DNA of 37,599 nt from an uncultured Candidatus Saccharibacteria bacterium (GTDB taxonomy: Bacteria; Patescibacteriota; Minisyncoccia; Phycocordibacterales; DATDWN01), in assembly GCA_964452635.1 (NCBI GenBank), contig CAYVMP010000006.1, forward strand, positions 1 to 37,599, given 5' to 3'. The notes below the pieces were generated by a model that was given only the letters and a program-made list of their open reading frames with translations, made no database searches and was not told where the DNA came from. The translations under genes were made by a program, and so were the position numbers. How positions within the stretch are numbered: position 1 is the first letter of the stretch; the number at the start of each line of letters is the position of its first letter. Of the stretch, positions 1,285 through 22,062 are shown piece by piece.

Positions 1285-3105
1285 ATGGAAACATTTTTCC
1301 AGACATTGTTGGGTTATTGGTGGGTTCTAGCCATCGTGTTAGTTCTCGCCTGTTACAAACTTGTTTTCCGACTGTTCGGCGCGGTTATCATTCCGCAGGA
1401 CAGTATCGGCATCGTCAACAAGAAGTTCGTTCTGTTCGGCAAGAATCGCACGCTTCCCGACGGGTGCATCATCGCACTCAACGGCGAGGCTGGTATTCAA
1501 GCCGACACGTTGGCGCCCGGGATTCATTTCGGGTTCTGGCCTTGGCAGTACGAGGTTAGGATCGAAGGATTCACTCAGATTGAGGAGGGGATGATCGGTG
1601 TTGTTGAATCTGCCGATGGCAGATCTCTCAGTGCGGGACGTGTCCTTGCAGAACGAGTAGATTGCGACTCCTTTCAGGATGCTCGCAAGTTCCTCACGGG
1701 TGGTGGTGAACGTGGACCGCAAATCACGGTGATTCCTCCAGGAACTTACCGTGTTAACATAGGTCTGTTCACGGTCGTTCAAGAGGAGGCTCTCGAGATC
1801 GAAGATAACATGGTCGGTGTTGTCACGACGCGTGAAGGCAAAGCTCTTCCGACTGGCGACATTGCGGGCGGGGAAATCCGAGGACATAAAATGTTCCAGG
1901 ATGCTCAAGCTTTCATCGATAACGGTGGATTCAAGGGTCTGCAGGAACAGGTCATGCTGGCTGGTAGATACTTCATCAATCCGCGGTTCGCAACGGTGGA
2001 AACCAAACCAATGACCGAGGTCCCGATTGCCAATGCTGGCGTCGTCATCGCTTTCGTTGGTGATGCTGGCGTCGATGTGACAGGAGAGTCATTCAAACAC
2101 GGCAACTTGGTGAAGAGGGGTCAAAAGGGTGTCTGGGTCGAGCCTCTCGATCCGGGCAAGTACCCAATCAACCCTTACACTCACAAGGTGGAATGCGTGC
2201 CAACGGCAAACGTTGTTCTCAACTGGGCAACAGGTAAAACCGAGTCTCACATGCTCGACAAAAACCTGTCCACCATCACTGTTCGTTCGTCCGACGGCTT
2301 CACGTTCAATCTCGACGTTAGTCAGATCATTCACATTCCACGCACCGATGCTCCCAAAGTCATCGCTCGCTTCGGCAGTGTGGCCAATCTGGTCACTCAG
2401 GTTCTCGAACCGACAATCGGAAACTACTTCCGCAACGCTGCGCAAGGGTCCGATGTTATCGAGTTCTTGAAGCAACGGCAACAACGCCAGAATGATGCCA
2501 AAGAGCAGATCTCTGAGGCACTCGAAGATTACAATGTCGGTGCGGTGGACACCCTCATCGGTGACATTACTCCGCCAGCATCGCTCATGACAACTCTCAC
2601 CAACCGAAAGTTGGCTGAGCAGGAGAAGATTACGTACGATACGCAACGTCTGGCCGAGGATACCCGTAAGGAGCTTCAGCAAGCGAAAGCGCTAGCAGAT
2701 ACGCAGGCGCGAGTGGTAGACGCGGAACGGAGTGTTCAAATCGCCGAGTTCAATGCGAAAGCCACAGTCAAGAAGGCTGAGGGTGACGCACTTTCGAAGA
2801 CAATTAACGCCAAAGCTGATGCTGAGGTTCTCACGACCGTTGGCTCGGCTGAAGGTACGAAGATCACGGCAGTCGGTGAGGCAGAGGCGAAGGTTATCCA
2901 GTTAAAGACCAACGCGGTTGGTCCGGGTAACTATGCGATGATTGAAGTCGGCAGAGCACTGGCTGGCAGCGGCTTCAAGTTAGTGCCGGACGTGATCGCC
3001 GGTGGAGGGACTGACGGTGGAAGTTCTGGGATCATCAACGTACTTATGGCAGGAATACTAAAGGACTCGTTGAACGGTCATCGTCAGGAAGTTCCGAAGC
3101 AATAA
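1285..3105 (+). CDS. Flotillin-like SPFH/band-7 membrane protein (YqiK/FloA type). The gene is GC-rich (~58-60%) with C/G-ending codons, unlike the rest of the window
   Basis: The protein has an N-terminal TM segment, an SPFH domain and a C-terminal Ala/Glu-rich coiled coil (AEGDALSKTINAKADAEV...GEAEAKV). An RBS (AAAGGAGGG) sits 5 nt upstream. Codon usage is dominated by ATC, AAC, TTC, GTC, GGC and GAC. Confidence 0.75.
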   Translation: METFFQTLLGYWWVLAIVLVLACYKLVFRLFGAVIIPQDSIGIVNKKFVLFGKNRTLPDGCIIALNGEAGIQADTLAPGIHFGFWPWQYEVRIEGFTQIEEGMIGVVESADGRSLSAGRVLAERVDCDSFQDARKFLTGGGERGPQITVIPPGTYRVNIGLFTVVQEEALEIEDNMVGVVTTREGKALPTGDIAGGEIRGHKMFQDAQAFIDNGGFKGLQEQVMLAGRYFINPRFATVETKPMTEVPIANAGVVIAFVGDAGVDVTGESFKHGNLVKRGQKGVWVEPLDPGKYPINPYTHKVECVPTANVVLNWATGKTESHMLDKNLSTITVRSSDGFTFNLDVSQIIHIPRTDAPKVIARFGSVANLVTQVLEPTIGNYFRNAAQGSDVIEFLKQRQQRQNDAKEQISEALEDYNVGAVDTLIGDITPPASLMTTLTNRKLAEQEKITYDTQRLAEDTRKELQQAKALADTQARVVDAERSVQIAEFNAKATVKKAEGDALSKTINAKADAEVLTTVGSAEGTKITAVGEAEAKVIQLKTNAVGPGNYAMIEVGRALAGSGFKLVPDVIAGGGTDGGSSGIINVLMAGILKDSLNGHRQEVPKQ

Positions 3106-13036: not shown

Positions 13037-13110
13037 TTATCCACTTTTTATTTATATTTTCTTTTGTTTTATTTTAAATATGATTGTATACTGGTATTAA
13101 ATACAGTTGT

Positions 13111-14007
13111 ATGGCAAACAGGCACCTTTCAAGATCAATAGTTCTCCAATCCCTATTTGAATGGGATTTCAATCATACGTCTGCCGAAAAGGCAAAGGAA
13201 ATTTTCGTCCGTAATGCAGAGGAGTTTGCTCCTGGGCAGGGCGATTTTTCTTTTATGGAAAATCTATTCACTGGTGTGCTCGATAAACAAAAAGACATCG
13301 ATGTAATTATCGAGAAAGCAGCTCCAGACTGGCCAATTGATAAAATCAGCGTGATGGATAGAAACATTATTCGTATCGGTCTCTTTGAACTCCTTTTTGC
13401 TGATCGTTCTCAGGTACCACCAAAGGTTGCTATTAATGAAGCAATCGAGCTTTCTAAGACATTCGGAGGTGAGACATCCGGCAAATTCGTAAACGGTGTA
13501 CTCGGTGCTGTATATAAAGAACTTGGTGAACCGGGCAAGGAAGAAACATCTCGCGATAAGAAAAACGGCAATCCTGCAAACGTTGTCGCTCCTACGGAGT
13601 ACCTCGGTGGCGCAGTGGTATATGCACGTGACGGTGAGGATGTATATCTCGCACTTGTTCATGATGTATTCGGACGATGGACTCTTTCAAAAGGTCATAT
13701 TGACGGTGAAAAGGATCCAATCGAAGAAATCAAACGCATTATAAAAGATGAGATTTCTTTGGACGTTACTGTGCAGGATAAACTTGGAAGTAATGAATAT
13801 GTCACGTACCATCCAGAAAAAGGCAAAATAAAAAAGAACGTAACATATTATCTCGTTGAATCTCCCTATGTTGATGTGAAGCTTGTAAACTCTGGTGGGC
13901 TTGACGATGCTCGATGGTTCAAGATGGGTGATATACTTGACCTTAATTTTTATAATGATATTCTACCGCTAGTTACTAAGGCGATTAATATACTGTTAAA
14001 GAAATAA
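13111..14007 (+). CDS. nusB: NusB antitermination factor fused to a C-terminal ~150-aa Nudix-fold-like domain with a degenerate Nudix box
   Basis: The N-terminal 140 aa form a typical NusB (SRSIVLQSLFEWDF...DRNIIRIGLFELLF). The C-terminal GEKDPIEEIKRIIKDEISLDV resembles GX5EX7REUXEEXGU, but with RE replaced by DE and EE by LD. Confidence 0.7.
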   Translation: MANRHLSRSIVLQSLFEWDFNHTSAEKAKEIFVRNAEEFAPGQGDFSFMENLFTGVLDKQKDIDVIIEKAAPDWPIDKISVMDRNIIRIGLFELLFADRSQVPPKVAINEAIELSKTFGGETSGKFVNGVLGAVYKELGEPGKEETSRDKKNGNPANVVAPTEYLGGAVVYARDGEDVYLALVHDVFGRWTLSKGHIDGEKDPIEEIKRIIKDEISLDVTVQDKLGSNEYVTYHPEKGKIKKNVTYYLVESPYVDVKLVNSGGLDDARWFKMGDILDLNFYNDILPLVTKAINILLKK

Positions 14008-14730: not shown

Positions 14731-14742
14731 TTTTTAAAAATT

Positions 14743-15060
14743 TTGCAAAATAAAAGCTCCCTGTCTTGGTTCAGGGAGCACGGTCACACGTTTATCCAGG
14801 ATGAGGGGTTCAAATCCCCCGAGCACCCAATTTCAAAGGAGAATTGCGGGCCCACAATTTCTCCTGTCACCCCACCCAAAAGATGGTTTTGGATTTTTCC
14901 CTTTAAGAGACCGATCGTGATGATCAGTCCAGAAGCTTTAGTAGTGTTCTGCCAAAACACTACTTCTTCGACCCAAGTGTCTTGTTTGGATAGGCTAGAG
15001 CATGACTCTAAAACCTAACTTCATTCAAGGGAATCACCGCCCGAAGGCTTTTTGTTTTAT
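14743..15060 (+). ncRNA. Structured ~300-nt noncoding region ending in an intrinsic terminator (15037-15060). It contains a tRNA/tmRNA-like T-arm plus acceptor 3' strand (GAGGGGTTCAAATCCCCCGAGCACCCA, 14803-14830). Its identity is unresolved; the 91-aa ORF called here is probably spurious
   Basis: A canonical T-loop, TTCAAAT, lies between 5-bp G/C stems. Several local hairpins are visible (14756-14780, 14838-14864, 14941-14962). No complementary 5' acceptor strand was found. Confidence 0.35.
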
Positions 15061-15142
15061 TCGTGTCTAGGAGTAACACTATTTTATTTTTCATTTCCTG
15101 TCAACATGTTGGTGTGGTACACTTATATCTAGGAGGTGTGCT

Positions 15143-15478
15143 ATGGGAGCTTTTAGAAATTTTCCTGAAGAAGAAATTCCAGATTTTTTCCCCGATATTA
15201 ATTGGCAACATTGCCAAGGTAAAGGGGATATAGTAGAAGCCTCTCAACCATCTGAAGAGCTTCAGGATGTTCCTGAGCGAAATGAATTGTCGTTAATGGA
15301 TGATATCAGTCGCATTGCTCGCTTTAGAAGTATAGCGAGGGAATGCGAAAGAATATTTTCGTCACTTCTGAGAAATGGAGTTGATGAAAGGTATTTATCG
15401 AGTGCGGAGGATACACTTCGTACACTCGAAGATGAGCTGAATAGATGTCAACAGGAGATTGAAGAGGGTGCGCCATAG
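15143..15478 (+). CDS. Hypothetical acidic protein (111 aa)
   Basis: A strong RBS (TAGGAGGTG) is present, and a terminator hairpin overlaps the stop codon. Confidence 0.55.
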   Translation: MGAFRNFPEEEIPDFFPDINWQHCQGKGDIVEASQPSEELQDVPERNELSLMDDISRIARFRSIARECERIFSSLLRNGVDERYLSSAEDTLRTLEDELNRCQQEIEEGAP

Positions 15479-15496
15479 GGCCACCCTTTTGTTTTA
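15465..15496 (+). terminator. Intrinsic terminator (agggtg cgccatagggc caccct + TTTGTTTT)
   Basis: Stem-loop followed by a T-run. Confidence 0.6.
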
Positions 15497-15543
15497 TGTT
15501 CCCAAAATGTATAATGAAGTTTGTTAAAAATAAATTTGTTGAA

Positions 15544-15636
15544 CCAATATGTTTTTGGCATATGCCGCAACGCGTGAAGACGTGAGGTTAAGGAAAAATC
15601 GTAGCAACGATTTATTCCGGTGCCAAAAACATATTG
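15544..15636 (+). promoter_or_regulatory. Perfect 17-bp inverted repeat, ccaatatgtttttggca / tgccaaaaacatattgg, enclosing 58 nt in the smc leader
   Basis: Read directly from the sequence. It ends 34 nt upstream of the smc ATG. Confidence 0.5.
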
Positions 15637-15669
15637 GTGAGAAAAAATTTATTTTACACACTGAAAACT

Positions 15670-17961
15670 ATGTATCTCAAATCAATCGAACTTTCTGGAT
15701 TCAAATCATTCGCAAAGAAAAGCGAGTTGCTTTTCAACTCGTCAATTTCTGCTATCGTTGGACCAAACGGATCGGGAAAGTCGAACATTGCGGAGGCATT
15801 CCGGTTTGTACTCGGTGAACAGTCCATCAAATCACTCCGTGGGAAAAAGGGTGAGGACCTCATATTCAACGGTGCAGGGGATTTGCCACGATCAAACCGT
15901 GCATCAGTGAAAGTCGTGTTCGACAATAGTAGTAAATTTCTACCAGTTGATTTTCAAGAGGTGACTATCGAGCGAGTCGTCCATCGAGACTCAGTCAATG
16001 AATACCTCATAAATGGCTCACAGGTTCGTCTCAAGGATGTGATTGAACTTCTCGCTGCTGCACACATCGGAGCATCTGGACACCATATCATTTCGCAGGG
16101 AGAGGCTGATCGTATTTTAAATGCAAGTGTCAAAGAACGTAAATCAATGATTGAAGATGCTCTCGGTCTCAAGATGTATCAATATAAAAAACAAGAAAGC
16201 GAACGTAAACTCGAAAAGACCCGAGAAAATATTGTACAGGTAGAATCCCTCCGGCGAGAGATTCTTCCGCATATTAAATTTCTCAAGAAACAGGTTGAGA
16301 AAGTCGAGAAGGGAATTGAGCTGAAAGGTGAATTACGAGAACGTGCGATTGAGTATTGTAATCGTGAACAGGAATACATCACACGAACTACAGCCCACTT
16401 ACATGAGACGCGTTTACCACTTGAGTCGACACTTCGTGCGCTCGAAGAAGAGTTGCAGGAAGCTAAATCGATTCTTAATGCCCGCGAACACAAGGATCAA
16501 AAATCCGAAGACCTCATTCAACTTGAAAAAAGTTTACATGCAATTCGAGATGAGAAAGACAACCTCTATCGTGAGTTTGGACGCATCGATGGTGAAATGA
16601 CATCGCTCGTGCGTATGGTAAAAAAACAGGAGGAGGTTGCGCAATCATACGAACATAAAACTGTACCACTTGTATCTGTCGAATCATTGTCACAAAATAT
16701 TGAGTCAAAAGTCCACACAGTACGGGGGTGTGTGACGGATGGCGACATCACTCTTGCTCTACAGACGTGTGACGAGATTGTACGACTTGTTACTGAATTT
16801 GTTGATGACAATAAAGATAAAGTGGATATGTCACTCCTCTCTGATGCTCAAAGAGATATTGAACATTTGAAACAGTCCAAAAATGATATTGAAAGCAGAC
16901 TTCAAGATATAAAGCAAAAGGAAATACGCGTGAGTGAACAGTATACTGTGCTCAAGGAAAACATTGAAAGGGAAAAAGATTCTAATCGTGATGCAGAAAA
17001 GGCAGTATTTCGTATTATGGCAGAACAGCAGGAAGTACGATCAAAACTGCACTCCCTCGAGAGTGATGAGAATCTTTTGAAAGTAGTCTCTGAAGATTTC
17101 AAGCGAGAAATCACAGAACTTGCGGTACTACTTGGGCGTGATGTATTGCAGTTTTCGGCGTATACGTTTGACTATACCGAACCTCGTACTGCTCAGGAAG
17201 AGAGGAGAAGAATGGTTGAGAAAATCAAGATTCGTTTGGAAGAAATGGGTGCGTCGGGTAGTGATGATGTGCTAAAGGAATACACAGAGGCTACTGAGCG
17301 AGACACGTTTCTCACGAAGGAGCTTTCTGATTTGGAGGCCTCAGCCTTGTCACTGACTGGACTCATTGCGGATTTGGATACGAGACTTTCAACAGAGTTT
17401 AAAACAGGAGTAGAGAAAATCAATCGACAATTTAAGGAATACTTTGCTCTCATGTTTGGTGGAGGGGAGGCGTCTCTTTCGGTTATTGTGGAACAAAAAC
17501 GCAGGAAAAGTGATACTGGTGCAGATGATTTGTTTGGGGGTGATTCTCATGATTTGTTAGACGATGGAGGGCATGCCCTGCGTAGCTCAAGTGAAGCGCA
17601 GAGCGAAGCAGGGATTGATATCGAGGTGAGTCTTCCAAAGAAAAAGGTGAAGGGACTCATGATGCTCTCAGGTGGTGAGAGGGCACTGACATCCATCGCA
17701 CTCCTCTTTGCTATTTCTCAGGTTAATCCTCCACCGTTTATTATTCTCGATGAGACTGACGCAGCACTCGATGAAGCCAATTCAAAGAAATATGCGGACA
17801 TGATTGAAAACTTATCAAAATACTCTCAACTCATTGTGATTACACACAATAGAGAGACCATGTCCCGCGCAGGAATCCTCTACGGAGTAACGATGGGTAT
17901 GGGTGGGGGATCGAAGTTGCTGTCCGTTGCCTTTGACGAAGCTGTTTCGGTTGCAAAATAG
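15670..17961 (+). CDS. smc: SMC-family chromosome segregation ATPase, short form (~764 aa). An in-frame insertion before the LSGGE signature carries the same 40-nt element found in gyrB
   Basis: Walker A GPNGSGKSN, a long coiled coil, the LSGGERALTSIALLFAI signature and the Walker B motif ILDETDAALD are all present. The start is chosen at MYLKSIELSGFKSF. Confidence 0.85.
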   Translation: MYLKSIELSGFKSFAKKSELLFNSSISAIVGPNGSGKSNIAEAFRFVLGEQSIKSLRGKKGEDLIFNGAGDLPRSNRASVKVVFDNSSKFLPVDFQEVTIERVVHRDSVNEYLINGSQVRLKDVIELLAAAHIGASGHHIISQGEADRILNASVKERKSMIEDALGLKMYQYKKQESERKLEKTRENIVQVESLRREILPHIKFLKKQVEKVEKGIELKGELRERAIEYCNREQEYITRTTAHLHETRLPLESTLRALEEELQEAKSILNAREHKDQKSEDLIQLEKSLHAIRDEKDNLYREFGRIDGEMTSLVRMVKKQEEVAQSYEHKTVPLVSVESLSQNIESKVHTVRGCVTDGDITLALQTCDEIVRLVTEFVDDNKDKVDMSLLSDAQRDIEHLKQSKNDIESRLQDIKQKEIRVSEQYTVLKENIEREKDSNRDAEKAVFRIMAEQQEVRSKLHSLESDENLLKVVSEDFKREITELAVLLGRDVLQFSAYTFDYTEPRTAQEERRRMVEKIKIRLEEMGASGSDDVLKEYTEATERDTFLTKELSDLEASALSLTGLIADLDTRLSTEFKTGVEKINRQFKEYFALMFGGGEASLSVIVEQKRRKSDTGADDLFGGDSHDLLDDGGHALRSSSEAQSEAGIDIEVSLPKKKVKGLMMLSGGERALTSIALLFAISQVNPPPFIILDETDAALDEANSKKYADMIENLSKYSQLIVITHNRETMSRAGILYGVTMGMGGGSKLLSVAFDEAVSVAK
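17574..17613. repeat. Second copy of the 40-nt palindrome-ended in-frame element (identical to 5865-5904). A perfect 10-bp palindrome, gggcatgccc, is created at its 5' junction
   Basis: Exact 40/40 identity with the gyrB copy, translated in the same frame (ALRSSSEAQSEAG). Confidence 0.8.
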
Positions 17962-18014
17962 CTCCTTGATTATTTTGTAAAAAAGTGTAGAAATATGTGT
18001 GGAGGTAAGCGAAA

Positions 18015-18638
18015 ATGTCCAATAAGTTTCTGGGGGTGCCTAAACCCTTTAAACTCCCACTGTTGGAGGAAAGATTGTGTGAACATAAAATCCCTACATT
18101 ATGGGATGATTCGATGTCTATCGGGTTATATATGGTGTACGCCACTGACGATGATGGACAAGAGAATTTGGAGGAGTTTTGTAAAAAACATCCTTCTAAA
18201 AAATACTTGGTTAGCATGAGTGAATTTGTGCTGACCTGTATTCAAGGAGTTCTGTTTGTGCTTTTTTTGGTAATACCCGCGTCTACAATAGGGAAACCCA
18301 GTATTCCTCAGAATGTCGCTTTGTCCATTATCGAGATGATTATATTAGCTGTGTTCATTTTCTCCCCTAGTTACATAAAGAAGTTGCAGTATACTTTGCG
18401 TGGGAGAGGATGGTCGGAATCTAACCCAGCACTGTTTGCCCATGAGCATCCAATGGATGTTATCAAGCAAATCTGCGGGTGTTCTACAGATGACTGTACT
18501 CACTCACCATTTAATTTCTTGGTGTCGCACCACCCAAGAAATCCTACTCGATTCCTGTCTGTTAAGGGACCAGATACTGGTCCTGCGAGAGTGTACTTCC
18601 TCGCTTCGTGGGAAAAACCATCAGAAAAATCAGAGTAG
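18015..18638 (+). CDS. Small membrane protein, paralog 1 (207 aa), with two predicted TM helices and a Cys/His-rich C-terminal region (ICGC...C.H...HHPRNPTRFLSV...YFLASWEKPSEKSE)
   Basis: RBS GGAGGT; promoter TTGATT-N16-TAGAAA; its own terminator at 18648-18676. Confidence 0.7.
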   Translation: MSNKFLGVPKPFKLPLLEERLCEHKIPTLWDDSMSIGLYMVYATDDDGQENLEEFCKKHPSKKYLVSMSEFVLTCIQGVLFVLFLVIPASTIGKPSIPQNVALSIIEMIILAVFIFSPSYIKKLQYTLRGRGWSESNPALFAHEHPMDVIKQICGCSTDDCTHSPFNFLVSHHPRNPTRFLSVKGPDTGPARVYFLASWEKPSEKSE

Positions 18639-18647
18639 AGTAGATAT

Positions 18648-18676
18648 CCTCCGGTACACGCCGGGGGATTTGTTTT
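18648..18676 (+). terminator. Intrinsic terminator of paralog 1 (cctccgg tacacg ccggggg + ATTTGTTTT)
   Basis: Stem-loop plus T-run; an identical copy lies at 19415-19446. Confidence 0.6.
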
Positions 18677-18766
18677 ATATCAATCCGTAGCGAGAATTTC
18701 ATCAAAAATCTTTCTACCTTGATTATTTTGTAAAAAAGTGTAGAAATATGGGTGGAGGTACGTGAA

Positions 18767-19405
18767 ATGTCAGATAAGTTTACGGGTACGTTTAAGCCCT
18801 TCGAGTACCCAGCGTTGGAGTTGGAACACCGTCTCCATAGTCGTAGCGTAGTGGTATCTGAAGAGCCATCTCAAGTGGTTCTGTATATGGTGTACGGTAA
18901 GGATTATGATGCACTTGCAAACCGAGAGGAGTTTTGTGAAAAACATCCTTTCCAGAAGTATTTTGTTGGAATGAGTGAGTTCGCGTATGCTTCCTTTATC
19001 CTTCTTGTTGGCTTATTGTTTCTGTTTACAACTGTCATAGCCTTTACTGGAGAACGAGGATTCACTACCCAGAACATACTAAAAAGCATTTTTATGATAG
19101 TTGTGATTTATCTCTGTATTTTTTCCCCCAGATACATAGAAAGACTAAACCATTCTTTGGAGGGTAGGGAATGGACGACTTCCCCTCCATCACATTTTAC
19201 CAATGAGAATTCGATGGATAGCATGAAAATAATCTGTGGTTGTCTCGATGCGGTTTCAAAATGTGCTCACCCAGGGTTTATTTTTAAGGTGTGGCACCAC
19301 CCACGCAATCCTACTCGGTTTCTGTCGGTTGAAAGTGTTCGTTCTGAAGGCAGAAGAAGATATTTCCTCGCCTCGTGGGAAAAACCATCAGAAAAATCAG
19401 AGTAG
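18767..19405 (+). CDS. Small membrane protein, paralog 2 (212 aa) of the same family. The start is the ATG after GGAGGT, not the upstream GTG
   Basis: It shares the N-terminal MS.KF.G..KPF, LYMVY, EEFC.KHP, FSP.YI, ICGC and HHPRNPTRFLSV...YFLASWEKPSEKSE motifs with paralog 1. Confidence 0.7.
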   Translation: MSDKFTGTFKPFEYPALELEHRLHSRSVVVSEEPSQVVLYMVYGKDYDALANREEFCEKHPFQKYFVGMSEFAYASFILLVGLLFLFTTVIAFTGERGFTTQNILKSIFMIVVIYLCIFSPRYIERLNHSLEGREWTTSPPSHFTNENSMDSMKIICGCLDAVSKCAHPGFIFKVWHHPRNPTRFLSVESVRSEGRRRYFLASWEKPSEKSE

Positions 19406-19414
19406 AGTAGATAT

Positions 19415-19446
19415 CCTCCGGTACACGCCGGGGGATTTGTTTTTTT
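19415..19446 (+). terminator. Intrinsic terminator of paralog 2, convergent with the rnr 3' end
   Basis: Identical hairpin plus T-run. Confidence 0.6.
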
Positions 19447-21385
19447 ACACCAATCCGTAGTCGAGAACACGACGTTCCATATCTGCAGAGATAACCTTGA
19501 ATCTGAGTGTGTCACCGAGTGTGAATTTCTTGCCACTTTTTTCACCTTTGAGAGTGTAGTTTTTTTCATCGAGTGTGAAGAAATCATCTCCAAGATCACG
19601 GAGCTTTATCATTCCCTCACATTTAGTTTCTTTCTCTTCGATGTAGATGCCCCATTCAGTTACACCCGTGATAGTTCCATCAAATGTTTCTCCGACATGT
19701 TCCTGCATGTACTCAACTTGTTTGTATTTAATAGACGAGCGTTCTGCATCCGATGCTCGTTTTTCATTTTCACTTGATTCGAGACAGATTCGTTCGTATT
19801 TTTCAAATTCATTTGGTTCGATTTTGCCACCCTTGAGTTCTCGTTCGAGGAAACGGTGTACGAGAAGATCGGGGTATCGACGAATTGGAGATGTAAAGTG
19901 TGTGTAGTATGTGAACGCAAGCCCGAAGTGTCCGATATTTTTCGTTGAGTAGACGGCCTTTGCCATACTCCGGATCGTTGCCGTTTTGATAAGTTCTTCG
20001 TTGCTACTTCCTTCGACATCCTTGAGTAGTTCGTTGATATCTCGAGAGGTAACTTTGCCCTCTTTATTGTGCAAATCAAACCCAAGTGCTTTGAGAAATA
20101 CCGCAAGGTTTTCGATGCGTTCTGTATCGGGAGTATTATGTATTCGGTACACTGACTGTGCACCCTTTTTAGAAATATTTTCCTTTTGAGATTTGAATAC
20201 AAACTCAGCAACAGCACGGTTGGCAAGGAGCATGTATTCCTCAACAAGTTTATGAGTATCAAGTCTCTGTTTTCGATACACACGTATTGGTTTGCCTTTC
20301 TCATCGAGGACGAACTTCACTTCATCTGTTTCGAAATTGATCGCACCATTTTCGAATTTTTTCTTTTCAAATATTTTTGCAATTCGATGGAGTGTTCGGA
20401 GTTCTGTTTGGAATGGTCCGTCGAGCTCACCATCAATCACTTTCTGTGCATCTTCGTATGTAAATCTGCGATCACTGTGGATGATTGTTCGCCCAAACCA
20501 TTGATCGATAATTGTGCCGTGTGTATCTATTTTAAATACTGCAGAGAATGTGTATTTGTCTTCGTTTGGGTTGAGTGAACAGAGGTCGTTTGAGAGAACT
20601 TCTGGGAGCATTGGGATGGTGCGGTCGACGAGATATACGGAGAGCCCGCGTTTTTCTGCCTCACGATCAAGCTCGGTACCGGGGGTAACGAAATATGACA
20701 CATCTGCAATGTGCACGCCGATTTCGTACGTGTCATCACCAAGGTCAACAAATGAAATCGCATCATCAAAATCCTTGGCATCTGCTGGGTCAATGGTCAT
20801 TGTGGTAGTAGAGCGCATGTCACGGCGGTTTTTGATTTCAGTTTCAAATGTAGTCGGGTATTTCTGTTTGAGGAGTTCAGCTTCTGCTTCGACGGTGAGA
20901 GGGAATTCAACTCGAAAACCCTTTTCGAGAACAATCGCTTCCATTTCTGTATTGTTTTCTCCGGATGCGCCAATGATTTTGGCGACGGTACCCATGAGTC
21001 GAGTTGTACTTGCCTCCCAATCTATTTCGACGAGAACTTTTGTGCCTTCTGGGATCTTTGCTTCCTCGTCGGTAGGTAGGAAAATATCTGCATACATGCG
21101 TTTGTCATCTGGGACTACATACGTTCCAGCATCACCGTGTACTACAGTGCCGACATACTCATTTTTAGTACGAGTGACTACACGCACCACCTTTCCTTGG
21201 TCTCGGTTTTTGATTTTCTCTCCTGTTGCCTCGATTTCAACAATGTCTCCGTGAAATGCACGGTTTACATACTCGGGTTGAATCTCGATACTATCAGTTT
21301 TCTTTTTATTTTCTGGATCGAGATCAAAAAAACCAACTCCTTTGGAATTGATACTAATCGCTCCAGTGAATCGTTTGCCTTTCAT
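19445..21385 (-). CDS. rnr: Ribonuclease R (RNase II family 3'-5' exoribonuclease)
   Basis: The RNB catalytic domain sits between N-terminal cold-shock/OB folds and a C-terminal S1 domain. An extended −10, TGtTATACT, lies upstream (~21400-21415 on the − strand). Confidence 0.9.
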   Translation of the reverse strand: MKGKRFTGAISINSKGVGFFDLDPENKKKTDSIEIQPEYVNRAFHGDIVEIEATGEKIKNRDQGKVVRVVTRTKNEYVGTVVHGDAGTYVVPDDKRMYADIFLPTDEEAKIPEGTKVLVEIDWEASTTRLMGTVAKIIGASGENNTEMEAIVLEKGFRVEFPLTVEAEAELLKQKYPTTFETEIKNRRDMRSTTTMTIDPADAKDFDDAISFVDLGDDTYEIGVHIADVSYFVTPGTELDREAEKRGLSVYLVDRTIPMLPEVLSNDLCSLNPNEDKYTFSAVFKIDTHGTIIDQWFGRTIIHSDRRFTYEDAQKVIDGELDGPFQTELRTLHRIAKIFEKKKFENGAINFETDEVKFVLDEKGKPIRVYRKQRLDTHKLVEEYMLLANRAVAEFVFKSQKENISKKGAQSVYRIHNTPDTERIENLAVFLKALGFDLHNKEGKVTSRDINELLKDVEGSSNEELIKTATIRSMAKAVYSTKNIGHFGLAFTYYTHFTSPIRRYPDLLVHRFLERELKGGKIEPNEFEKYERICLESSENEKRASDAERSSIKYKQVEYMQEHVGETFDGTITGVTEWGIYIEEKETKCEGMIKLRDLGDDFFTLDEKNYTLKGEKSGKKFTLGDTLRFKVISADMERRVLDYGLV

Positions 21386-21497
21386 GTGAGATTAGTATAA
21401 CAGATTGGACACATTTTACCTACTGTCTTGTAAAAGAGCTATACTGAGCCATATTATATAATTCTAAAAAAGTATTTTGATTTTCATATAAATTTGC

Positions 21498-21526
21498 TTG
21501 ACAAAAAATTGAAAGGGTGCTACTAT
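21498..21526 (+). promoter_or_regulatory. Strong sigma70-type promoter: −35 TTGACA (21498-21503), 17-nt spacer, −10 TACTAT (21521-21526)
   Basis: Consensus −35 with ideal spacing; it drives the GC-rich noncoding segment downstream. Confidence 0.6.
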
Positions 21527-21534
21527 ATACCCAT

Positions 21535-21740
21535 AATGATCTTTCAAAATTTTTCGTTCGGCGTACGAACTACGCCACGCACAGGCTTACCCGGTCACCT
21601 GACCGGGGCCCACTAGGGGCTTAAACTAGCAACTTGTCTCGCGCAAGCTCGAGATCGCCAACATGGCCCGAATCGCCATGCTGGCAGCGGATCCCGAGTC
21701 TTGTAGAGACAAAGAGGGCAGGAGAAATCCTGCCCTTTTC
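21535..21740 (+). ncRNA. Unidentified ~200-nt GC-rich structured ncRNA with its own promoter and intrinsic terminator (gggcagg agaaat cctgccc TTTT, 21714-21740). The ORFs called here on both strands are probably spurious
   Basis: Multiple stable hairpins are visible: cccggtc-acct-gaccggg at 21590-21607, catggc-ccgaatc-gccatg at 21662-21680, and ggcgta/tacgcc. It is 57% GC in a 42% GC genome, with no credible coding potential. Confidence 0.5.
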
Positions 21741-21785
21741 CATATATAAATTTACAATTTTTTCCTTTTACAAAAAGGGTATCTG

Positions 21786-21794
21786 TGGTATCAT
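21786..21794 (+). promoter_or_regulatory. Extended −10 promoter (TGgTATCAT) upstream of the uvrA leader
   Basis: A TGn + TATCAT element; the same TATCAT hexamer is used at 26755 and 27044. Confidence 0.4.
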
Positions 21795-21860
21795 AATGCT
21801 CACTATATATGCAGTACGCCCGTCCGCGGGTCTGTTTGTGTATGTGTACGTTATGTAGAC

Positions 21861-22051
21861 AGTTTTCAAAATTCGTCGAGTGCACTTACTGTTCTGGCAC
21901 ATTGCGCAGTCAATTAGAAAACAACTGTGGGCGAGTGATGGGAACACGAGATCCGCATCTTGTTTTCTTGATTGGCGAGCGTGAGGAAAATTTCTAGCAA
22001 GAAATTATTCCGGTGACAGAACAGTAAGTGTCGAGACAAATTTTGAAAACT
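21861..22051 (+). promoter_or_regulatory. Long-range inverted repeat in the uvrA 5' leader. The arms agttttcaaaatt...cacttactgttctg (21861-21896) and cagaacagtaagtg...aattttgaaaact (22017-22051) enclose ~120 nt and end 12 nt before the uvrA ATG
   Basis: The 13-bp and 14-bp perfectly complementary segments are separated by a 9-nt mismatch loop in each arm. Confidence 0.5.
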
Positions 22052-22062
22052 ATCCAATTTTT

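Follow-up and report, generated by a model that had tools for sequence, protein, structure and literature searches.

A tandem pair of genes with identical ends and old, diverged interiors between smc and rnr in a Candidatus Saccharibacteria contig

Introduction

The paralogs tufA and tufB of Salmonella and Escherichia coli are subject to RecA-dependent gene conversion and evolve in concert. Conserved flanks around variable segments are found in pilE/pilS of Neisseria and vlsE of Borrelia, systems that depend on a variable region exposed at the surface and on many donor cassettes lacking promoters, and the cassettes of integrons are single-gene units arranged head to tail and bounded by repeated sequence. 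In Helicobacter pylori, babA, babB, and babC have near-identical 5′ and 3′ regions and a divergent middle, and the identity of the ends is attributed to gene conversion and also permits it (PMC4552749). Here we analyze two tandem genes, A and B, for small proteins with two predicted transmembrane (TM) segments, which lie between smc and the convergent rnr on a 37,599-nt contig of an uncultured Candidatus Saccharibacteria bacterium (CAYVMP010000006.1, assembly GCA_964452635.1). The whole contig is called the window in the following. The transcription units of A and B have identical ends and divergent interiors.

As with tufA and tufB, two paralogs of one genome have tracts that would be kept identical by nonreciprocal homologous exchange. 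The tuf copies are dispersed and homogenized over the whole coding region, whereas here the two copies stand next to each other as direct repeats, identity is confined to ends of 34 and 71 nt, and the interiors have fully escaped. The locus shares conserved flanks around a variable segment with pilE/pilS and vlsE, but it consists of two complete genes with their own promoters, has no donors on the contig, and is under purifying selection. The units resemble integron cassettes in their head-to-tail order and repeated borders; unlike them, every unit is provided with a promoter of its own, and neither an integrase nor attC-type imperfect palindromes are present, the only inverted repeat being the terminator hairpin. 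A diversity-generating retroelement does not fit either: no reverse transcriptase was found on the contig, and the differences between A and B are not adenine-specific, as they take in all bases plus indels. With the bab paralogs the locus shares identical ends and a divergent middle, but the bab loci are dispersed, encode adhesins of the cell surface, carry phase-variable CT repeats, and have been seen to form chimeras (PMC4552749), whereas the proteins described here are predicted to be mostly cytoplasmic, their conserved ends are mainly non-coding, and neither chimeras nor phase-variation repeats were seen. The association of this pattern with gene conversion is already well known (PMC4552749); here it is attached to an orphan protein family.

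Anatomy and Age of the Two Units

The two units follow each other head to tail on the forward strand (17964–18716 and 18717–~19466), and each has a promoter, a Shine-Dalgarno sequence, a gene for a two-TM protein, and a terminator, as the original prediction, made from the sequence without database searches, had proposed. Unit 1 opens 2 nt after the stop codon of smc with a promoter-like block (17964–17997) that holds a −35 hexamer TTGATT (17966–17971), a 16-nt spacer with TTTTGTAAAAAAGTG, and a −10 hexamer TAGAAA (17988–17993). A Shine-Dalgarno sequence, GGAGGT, can be read at 18001–18006, 8 nt ahead of the ATG of gene A (18015–18638; 207 aa, P0001), which was delimited by its open reading frame (ORF) and characterized by the family alignment, an AlphaFold2 (AF2) model, and hydropathy. 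The 3′ block of the unit (18606–18676) contains the last 10 codons of A, the stop codon, a 7-nt linker, the terminator hairpin (18646–18669, from a terminator scan and RNA folding), and the start of the T-run. It is followed by a decayed copy of the 3′ end of rnr (18677–18696), recognized by local alignment to 19450–19467, and by a unique spacer (18697–18716). Unit 2 repeats the arrangement, with the second 5′ block as the promoter of gene B (18717–18750; −35 at 18719–18724, −10 at 18741–18746), a GGAGGT, likewise read off the sequence, at 18754–18759, 7 nt ahead of the ATG at 18767, the paralogous gene B of like architecture (18767–19405; 212 aa, P0002), and the second 3′ block (19373–19443), which comprises the last 10 codons of B, the stop codon, and the terminator hairpin (19413–19436, terminator scan). 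The stop codon of rnr lies 8 nt past the stem of this hairpin.

The 5′ blocks are identical at 34/34 nt, in agreement with the ~35 nt proposed earlier, and after one mismatch GTGGAGGTA matches again. The 3′ blocks are identical at 71/71 nt (18606–18676 and 19373–19443), i.e., over 10 codons (SWEKPSEKSE), the stop codon, and 38 non-coding nt including the hairpin. A base-identical tract of ~75 nt including YFLASWEKPSEKSE had been claimed for this end; it holds for the 71 nt but not for the Y and A codons of YFLA, because widening the block to 83 nt (18594–18676) brings in two mismatches, both synonymous (Y194 TAC/TAT, A197 GCT/GCC). Each identical block is present exactly twice on the contig. 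The two proteins are 46% identical, close to the earlier figure of ~45%.

The remnant of rnr between the units is real. Its positions 18680–18696 match the true 3′ end of rnr (19450–19467) at 16/16 aligned bases with one 1-nt indel, and over 18677–18696 there are two substitutions and this frameshifting indel (shuffle P < 0.0005); on the minus strand it reads ...YGLI-stop, against ...DYGLV-stop in the gene itself. Hence, the earlier suggestion that the segment was copied as a block together with a fragment of rnr holds. A remnant of the smc tail in the unique spacer was also considered and rejected, as the similarity is not significant (P = 0.48).

The tandem layout is present in a second public assembly, whose reads may overlap those of the metagenome-assembled genome (MAG) from which the window comes. 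The 90%-identity cluster of protein A holds a second sequence, from a SPAdes node of ENA assembly ERZ4216102 (L091, 1382 nt), which corresponds to window 17968–19349 and thus spans gene A, the junction, and most of B with a single mismatch. This difference (18626 A>C, L091:659) lies inside the 3′ block of A and is non-synonymous (E204D), which suggests that the block is not absolutely invariant, although at a coverage of 1.9x it is possibly a sequencing error.

Between the ends, the units are strongly diverged. Their alignment has 777 columns at 67% identity, and its longest identical runs are of 67–71, 34, 13, 12, and 12 nt. When the match/mismatch vector was permuted (5000 trials), the longest run averaged 14.9 and reached at most 38. 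Both flank blocks are far beyond chance, and the near-identical stretches of the interior, where the longest run is 13, are at chance level. The mosaic that the original prediction saw in these stretches (LYMVY, EEFC.KHP, HHPRNPTRFLSV) is what conserved amino-acid motifs give at such divergence.

The Nei-Gojobori estimates of nonsynonymous (dN) and synonymous (dS) divergence between A and B are 0.45 and 1.40 overall, dS rising to 1.59 without the tail, and dN/dS is ~0.3; the N-terminal 37 codons are relaxed (dN/dS ~0.75). Among interior codons that keep their amino acid and have synonymous alternatives, 48/80 are identical, versus 33 expected at full saturation given the codon usage of the contig, so that 40% of the amino-acid-keeping codons differ synonymously. 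Therefore, the interior is genuinely old and under purifying selection, and it owes its divergence to age rather than to positive selection. The interior dS (~1.5), dN/dS, and the codon comparison exclude a recent duplication with subsequent diversifying selection; the statement that a recent duplication cannot give the pattern was correct, and the strong diversifying pressure offered as one of its explanations is not supported.

Why the Ends Are Identical

The 5′ block can be compared with distant family members, seven of which were recovered (see following). Even with three mismatches allowed, the two units are the only places in the window where the motif TTTTGTAAAANNGTGTANAAATATG is found, and among 90 fetched loci it is found only upstream of the ortholog in L084. 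There, 30/34 nt are identical (window 17973–18006 and L084 4961–4994), whereas the proteins are 28% and the RNase R sequences 62% identical. A like promoter element with an indel is found in L087 (~815–850). The shared element, TTTTGTAAAA..GTGTA.AAATATG (window 17973–17997 and 18726–18750, L084:4961–4985), has two TGTA(A/G/T)AAA half-sites 10 bp apart and may be a putative operator for some regulator. By this comparison the promoter element is better conserved than the protein it drives, and the 5′ block, probably a family-specific promoter, is together with its spacer under strong purifying selection; this aspect was absent from the earlier account. Since the promoter is conserved in distant orthologs, purifying selection explains much of the 5′ identity. 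A 12-mer of the promoter spacer, TTTTGTAAAAAA (17973–17984 and 18726–18737), recurs within gene A at 18177–18188, where it encodes the conserved EEFCKKHP; gene B has TTTTGTGAAAAA at that place, and the recurrence could be due to chance in AT-rich DNA.

Constraint seems to leave part of the 5′ identity unexplained. Over the 43 positions of 17964–18006 there are 11 differences between A and L084, seven of them among the nine positions of the −35 segment (17964–17972), and only one between A and B. If the A-L084 count is scaled by protein distance (−ln identity, 0.78 for A-B and 1.27 for A-L084), ~6.6 differences are expected between A and B where one is observed, a rough inference that assumes clock-like change (Poisson P ~ 0.01).

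At the 3′ end, the terminators of the orthologs, and their C-terminal tails past the WEKP motif, are unrelated in sequence to the 3′ block of A and B, so that family-wide constraint cannot explain how 38/38 non-coding bases stayed identical while synonymous sites came close to saturation. The adjoining rnr remnant, which is neutral, has already decayed by substitutions and an indel. Most economically, the 3′ block is explained by conversion over short tracts between the direct repeats; alternatively, the ends would be of more recent common origin through recombination. Homogenization of the flanks by conversion, one of the explanations proposed originally, is thus plausible, especially for this block.

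With middling confidence, we read the locus as an old tandem duplication with partial concerted evolution, in which the ends are kept identical by conversion and the interiors have escaped. An ancient, lineage-specific tandem duplication would have copied a whole transcription unit, i.e., the promoter, the Shine-Dalgarno sequence, the gene, the terminator, and ~20 nt of the rnr tail. The product would be a rare protein of Patescibacteria, anchored by a two-TM hairpin, with N-terminal helices and a C-terminal, possibly metal-binding Cys/His α/β domain of ~85 aa in the cytoplasm. Both copies would have remained functional under purifying selection while their interiors drifted to near synonymous saturation, and the 5′ end would have been held by selection as the family-specific promoter, even between distant orthologs. 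Because the ends are constrained and diverge slowly, homologous recombination over short tracts (gene conversion) would have been able to go on acting on them between the direct repeats. Conversion would then render the ends strictly identical, and the interior would leave concerted evolution once it is too diverged to pair.

Several points weigh against this reading. The collections searched yielded no genome that has orthologs of both A and B, and recA is not on this 37.6-kb contig. A length of 34 nt is near the minimum for RecA-dependent exchange. In the tail, 11/13 codons capable of synonymous change are identical, as compared with 48/80 in the interior (Fisher P = 0.12), and by a rough calculation a run of 10 identical codons has a ~1-in-3 chance of arising somewhere among the 93 such codons. 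The strength of the 3′ signal therefore rests on the 38 identical non-coding bases, not on the codons.

The ends might also have been kept by purifying selection alone, the promoter or operator, the C-terminal strand, and the terminator having stayed unchanged since the duplication with no recombination. This would account for a 5′ element kept at 30/34 nt in an ortholog with a 28% identical protein and for a motif found only upstream of family genes; WEKP is conserved at the protein level family-wide, and, taken by itself, the tail's stretch of identical codons does not reach significance. It accounts poorly for the 38 non-coding identities of A and B, loop and linker included, when the terminators and tails of the orthologs are unrelated, and for a −35 segment that is identical in A and B and differs at seven of nine positions in L084. 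The differences between the two promoter regions are also, on the rough scaling above, some 6-fold below the expectation from A and L084, and the non-synonymous change in L091 suggests that the 3′ block is not immutable. We regard selection alone as unlikely, while granting it some weight.

Distribution of the Family and of Its Insertion Site

A word-indexed search of 5.8 billion proteins returned A and B alone, and an exhaustive HMMER profile search of 1.84 billion representatives returned seven further members (E 8e-14 to 6e-4, 162–209 aa, 19–29% identical), making nine representatives in all. As proposed at the outset, the family is uncharacterized: searches of Pfam, NCBIfam, PADLOC, and PDB sequences with both proteins and with the nine-member alignment gave nothing above cut-offs. 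Exact-sequence look-ups of P0001 and P0002 returned no contigs, and a scan of metagenome contigs with just the N-terminal motifs returned one unrelated locus. In the family tree, A and B pair as sisters, and each other member is equally distant from both, which is consistent with a lineage-specific duplication.

The members have a common architecture, with an N-terminal region ending in K-x-H-P, a two-TM hairpin, and a C-terminal domain with W..SPF..F..EY, usually (I)CGC-x4-C, then F.V.HHP.SP.RFL.V and YY.D.WEKP. The invariant positions are P60, W133, F141, V170, H173, and L181; two members lack the cysteines, and the C-terminal WEKP is kept across the family. In protein A, N-terminal helices precede the hairpin (~aa 71–89 and 101–119), and the C-terminal α/β domain contains CGC-x4-C-x-H and HHPRNPTRFL. 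Hydropathy and counts of K and R (the positive-inside rule) predict a hairpin with both termini inside and an outer loop of 4–11 aa, with which the AF2 model agrees (predicted local distance difference test, pLDDT, 77). Nearly all of the protein, including its divergent parts, is thus predicted to be cytoplasmic. As a low-confidence working guess, it may be a membrane-tethered cytoplasmic domain that binds metal through the C-x-C-x4-C-x-H cluster and the HH pair.

Residues 39–80 of copy A (LYMVY...EEFCKKHP...) have a weak, local match to phrog_3754, a family of unknown function (E 1e-4), a match seen neither with copy B nor with any other family member. An unrelated 195-aa protein with a clear match to phrog_3754 (E 6e-25) and with AEEFCKKHPRGRYIL is encoded at L083:363–947 (JAEIGA010223718.1). 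Kinship with phrog_3754 was rejected because the L083 ORF aligns over 17 residues only, i.e., the similarity is at the level of a motif.

Each of the seven other loci recovered has one copy of the family gene. In three of them (L001, L084, and L085), the gene is placed exactly between smc and a convergent rnr, in the order NusB-NUDIX/rnc/smc/gene/rnr; the homolog of L087 follows pth, that of L090 stands beside a GT2 gene, and the other two are on contigs too short to place. In L001, a near-perfect inverted repeat of ~115 nt (AAACTCTCAAATTTGG...CCAAATTTGAGAGTTT; L001:602–720) lies between the stop codon of smc and the promoter of the family member. In the window, the contig searches (blastn, tblastn, and a hidden Markov model, HMM, over the 37.6 kb) revealed neither further copies nor silent cassettes besides A and B.

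The smc/rnr junction (17962–19444 in the window; loci L003–L082, L092, and L094) was surveyed in 80 GTDB relatives fetched via RNase R, 58 of which have both genes in the fetched DNA. In most of the 58, smc and the convergent rnr are adjacent, with a gap of 7 nt to 4.1 kb and unrelated cargo, namely genes for D,D-carboxypeptidase-like (eight loci), DoxX-like, histidine-phosphatase-like, and ECF-sigma-like proteins and KGG-repeat stress proteins, and small conserved ORFs, all named by sequence and clustering, not by domain searches. The family HMM found no member among the 80 relatives. In the two closest relatives (RNase R 79–80% identical), the gap holds an ECF-sigma-like gene and a small ORF, or nothing. 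The family is present at 51–62% RNase R identity and absent from the closest relatives at 70–80%, and hence is patchily distributed at a variable hotspot site.

Another tandem pair of two-TM proteins (173 and 176 aa, 31% identical) lies in the same gap in L016 (6970–8089, minus strand of the locus). Each of its genes has its own promoter and terminator, the proteins have LR(L/V)K(H/Y)P just before TM1, which recalls the K-x-H-P of the family, the flanks are ~70% identical only, and TTTTACAAA, from the region of the rnr stop codon, is repeated after both terminators. The pair was tried as a distant homolog and rejected (hhalign probability 3%).

This variability of the junction, seen across the 58 relatives, and the patchy distribution of the family favor another origin of the pair, by capture of an allele or exchange of a cassette. 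A and B would be ancient alleles or xenologs, the second of which recombined in through the conserved flanks (the promoter, the C-terminus with the terminator, and the ends of smc and rnr) to stand in tandem, e.g., by Campbell-type insertion of a circularized fragment, and the flanks would be identical because they are recent common sequence. The rnr tail in the junction is what a circular intermediate would yield. Against this, A and B are mutually closest and equidistant from all other members, and neither a third allele nor a contig with only A or only B was found in 5.8 billion proteins. In addition, the junction is not of very recent date, given the indel and substitutions of the rnr remnant, yet the flanks are free of differences, and both available assemblies have the same arrangement of A and B. 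We consider this origin, by either route, rather improbable. A more specific scenario, in which the smc/rnr junction of Paceibacteria-type Patescibacteria is a recombination hotspot that swaps small cargo genes by way of the strongly conserved ends of smc and rnr, the 34- and 71-nt blocks act as exchange handles by which a second allele was captured in tandem, and the promoter binds some regulator, has a slim chance of being correct.

The original prediction favored a variable membrane-protein system, in which diversifying selection or cassette shuffling between loci drives the interiors apart. Identical ends with a divergent middle are indeed found in systems of the bab, opa, and pil type (PMC4552749), and the relaxed N-terminal 37 residues (dN/dS ~0.75) point the same way. 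However, dS of ~1.5 and an overall dN/dS of ~0.3 indicate an old divergence that is not driven by dN, and the identity runs of the interior are at chance level. There are two copies only, the contig has no silent cassettes, its annotation shows neither a recombinase nor a reverse transcriptase or integrase among the neighboring genes, all other loci recovered have a single copy, and the second assembly has unchanged interiors in an unchanged arrangement. Furthermore, the predicted topology leaves only an outer loop of 9–11 aa outside the cytoplasm. This reading is largely refuted, and we give it very little credence.

It is equally hard to believe that the tandem is an assembly artefact, made of two strain alleles of a single-copy locus or of a mis-resolved repeat, as the original prediction had allowed: the contig does come from a MAG, and its flanks are exact repeats of the sort that confuse de Bruijn graphs, but repeats of 34 and 71 nt are shorter than usual final k-mers or read lengths, the 40-nt unique junction with the decayed rnr tail (18677–18716) must exist in reads for the tandem path, and the node of ERZ4216102 reproduces A, the junction, and most of B with one mismatch in 1382 nt.

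The Contig and Its Other Features

The window is an entire 37.6-kb contig of housekeeping genes, among them pheT, gyrB, dnaE, a thrS-like gene, rnhB, a NusB-NUDIX fusion, rnc, a short smc, rnr, uvrA, uvrC, mreBC, PBP2, and greA. By RNase R, its nearest relatives are MAGs of Patescibacteria of the Parcubacteria/Paceibacteria type, at most 80% identical. The paralog pair is flanked upstream by smc (15634–17961, plus strand; 775 aa, Pfam SMC_N E 3e-67) and downstream by the convergent rnr (19445–21385, minus strand; RNase R of 646 aa, Pfam RNB E 3e-111).

The NusB-NUDIX fusion protein (307 aa, 13084–14007) is kept in L084, L085, and L094. The GC content, ~0.42 in the rest of the contig, peaks at 0.54 in 2001–3000, within the ORF of an SPFH/Band 7 protein (1285–3105, 606 aa) whose first ~280 residues have no Pfam match. 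Two stretches have no convincing gene, one of ~900 nt between rnc and smc (14731–15633), where the sole ORF is of 111 aa (15143–15478), and one of ~680 nt between rnr and uvrA (21386–22062). An Rfam search of the window and the locus gave no RNA family at the gathering threshold.

Conclusions

The analysis overturns nothing and chiefly removes the reading of the locus as a variable surface-protein system. In this lineage, the smc/rnr junction stands out as a site of variable insertion. A further outcome is the definition of a family of membrane-anchored proteins, very rare and uncharacterized, which are predicted to be cytoplasmic for the most part and have what appears to be a conserved and dedicated promoter. 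If the ends of the two units are indeed maintained by conversion, as we infer, the pair would be a small and clean example of partial concerted evolution in a reduced genome of Patescibacteria, a group in which little is known of recombination.

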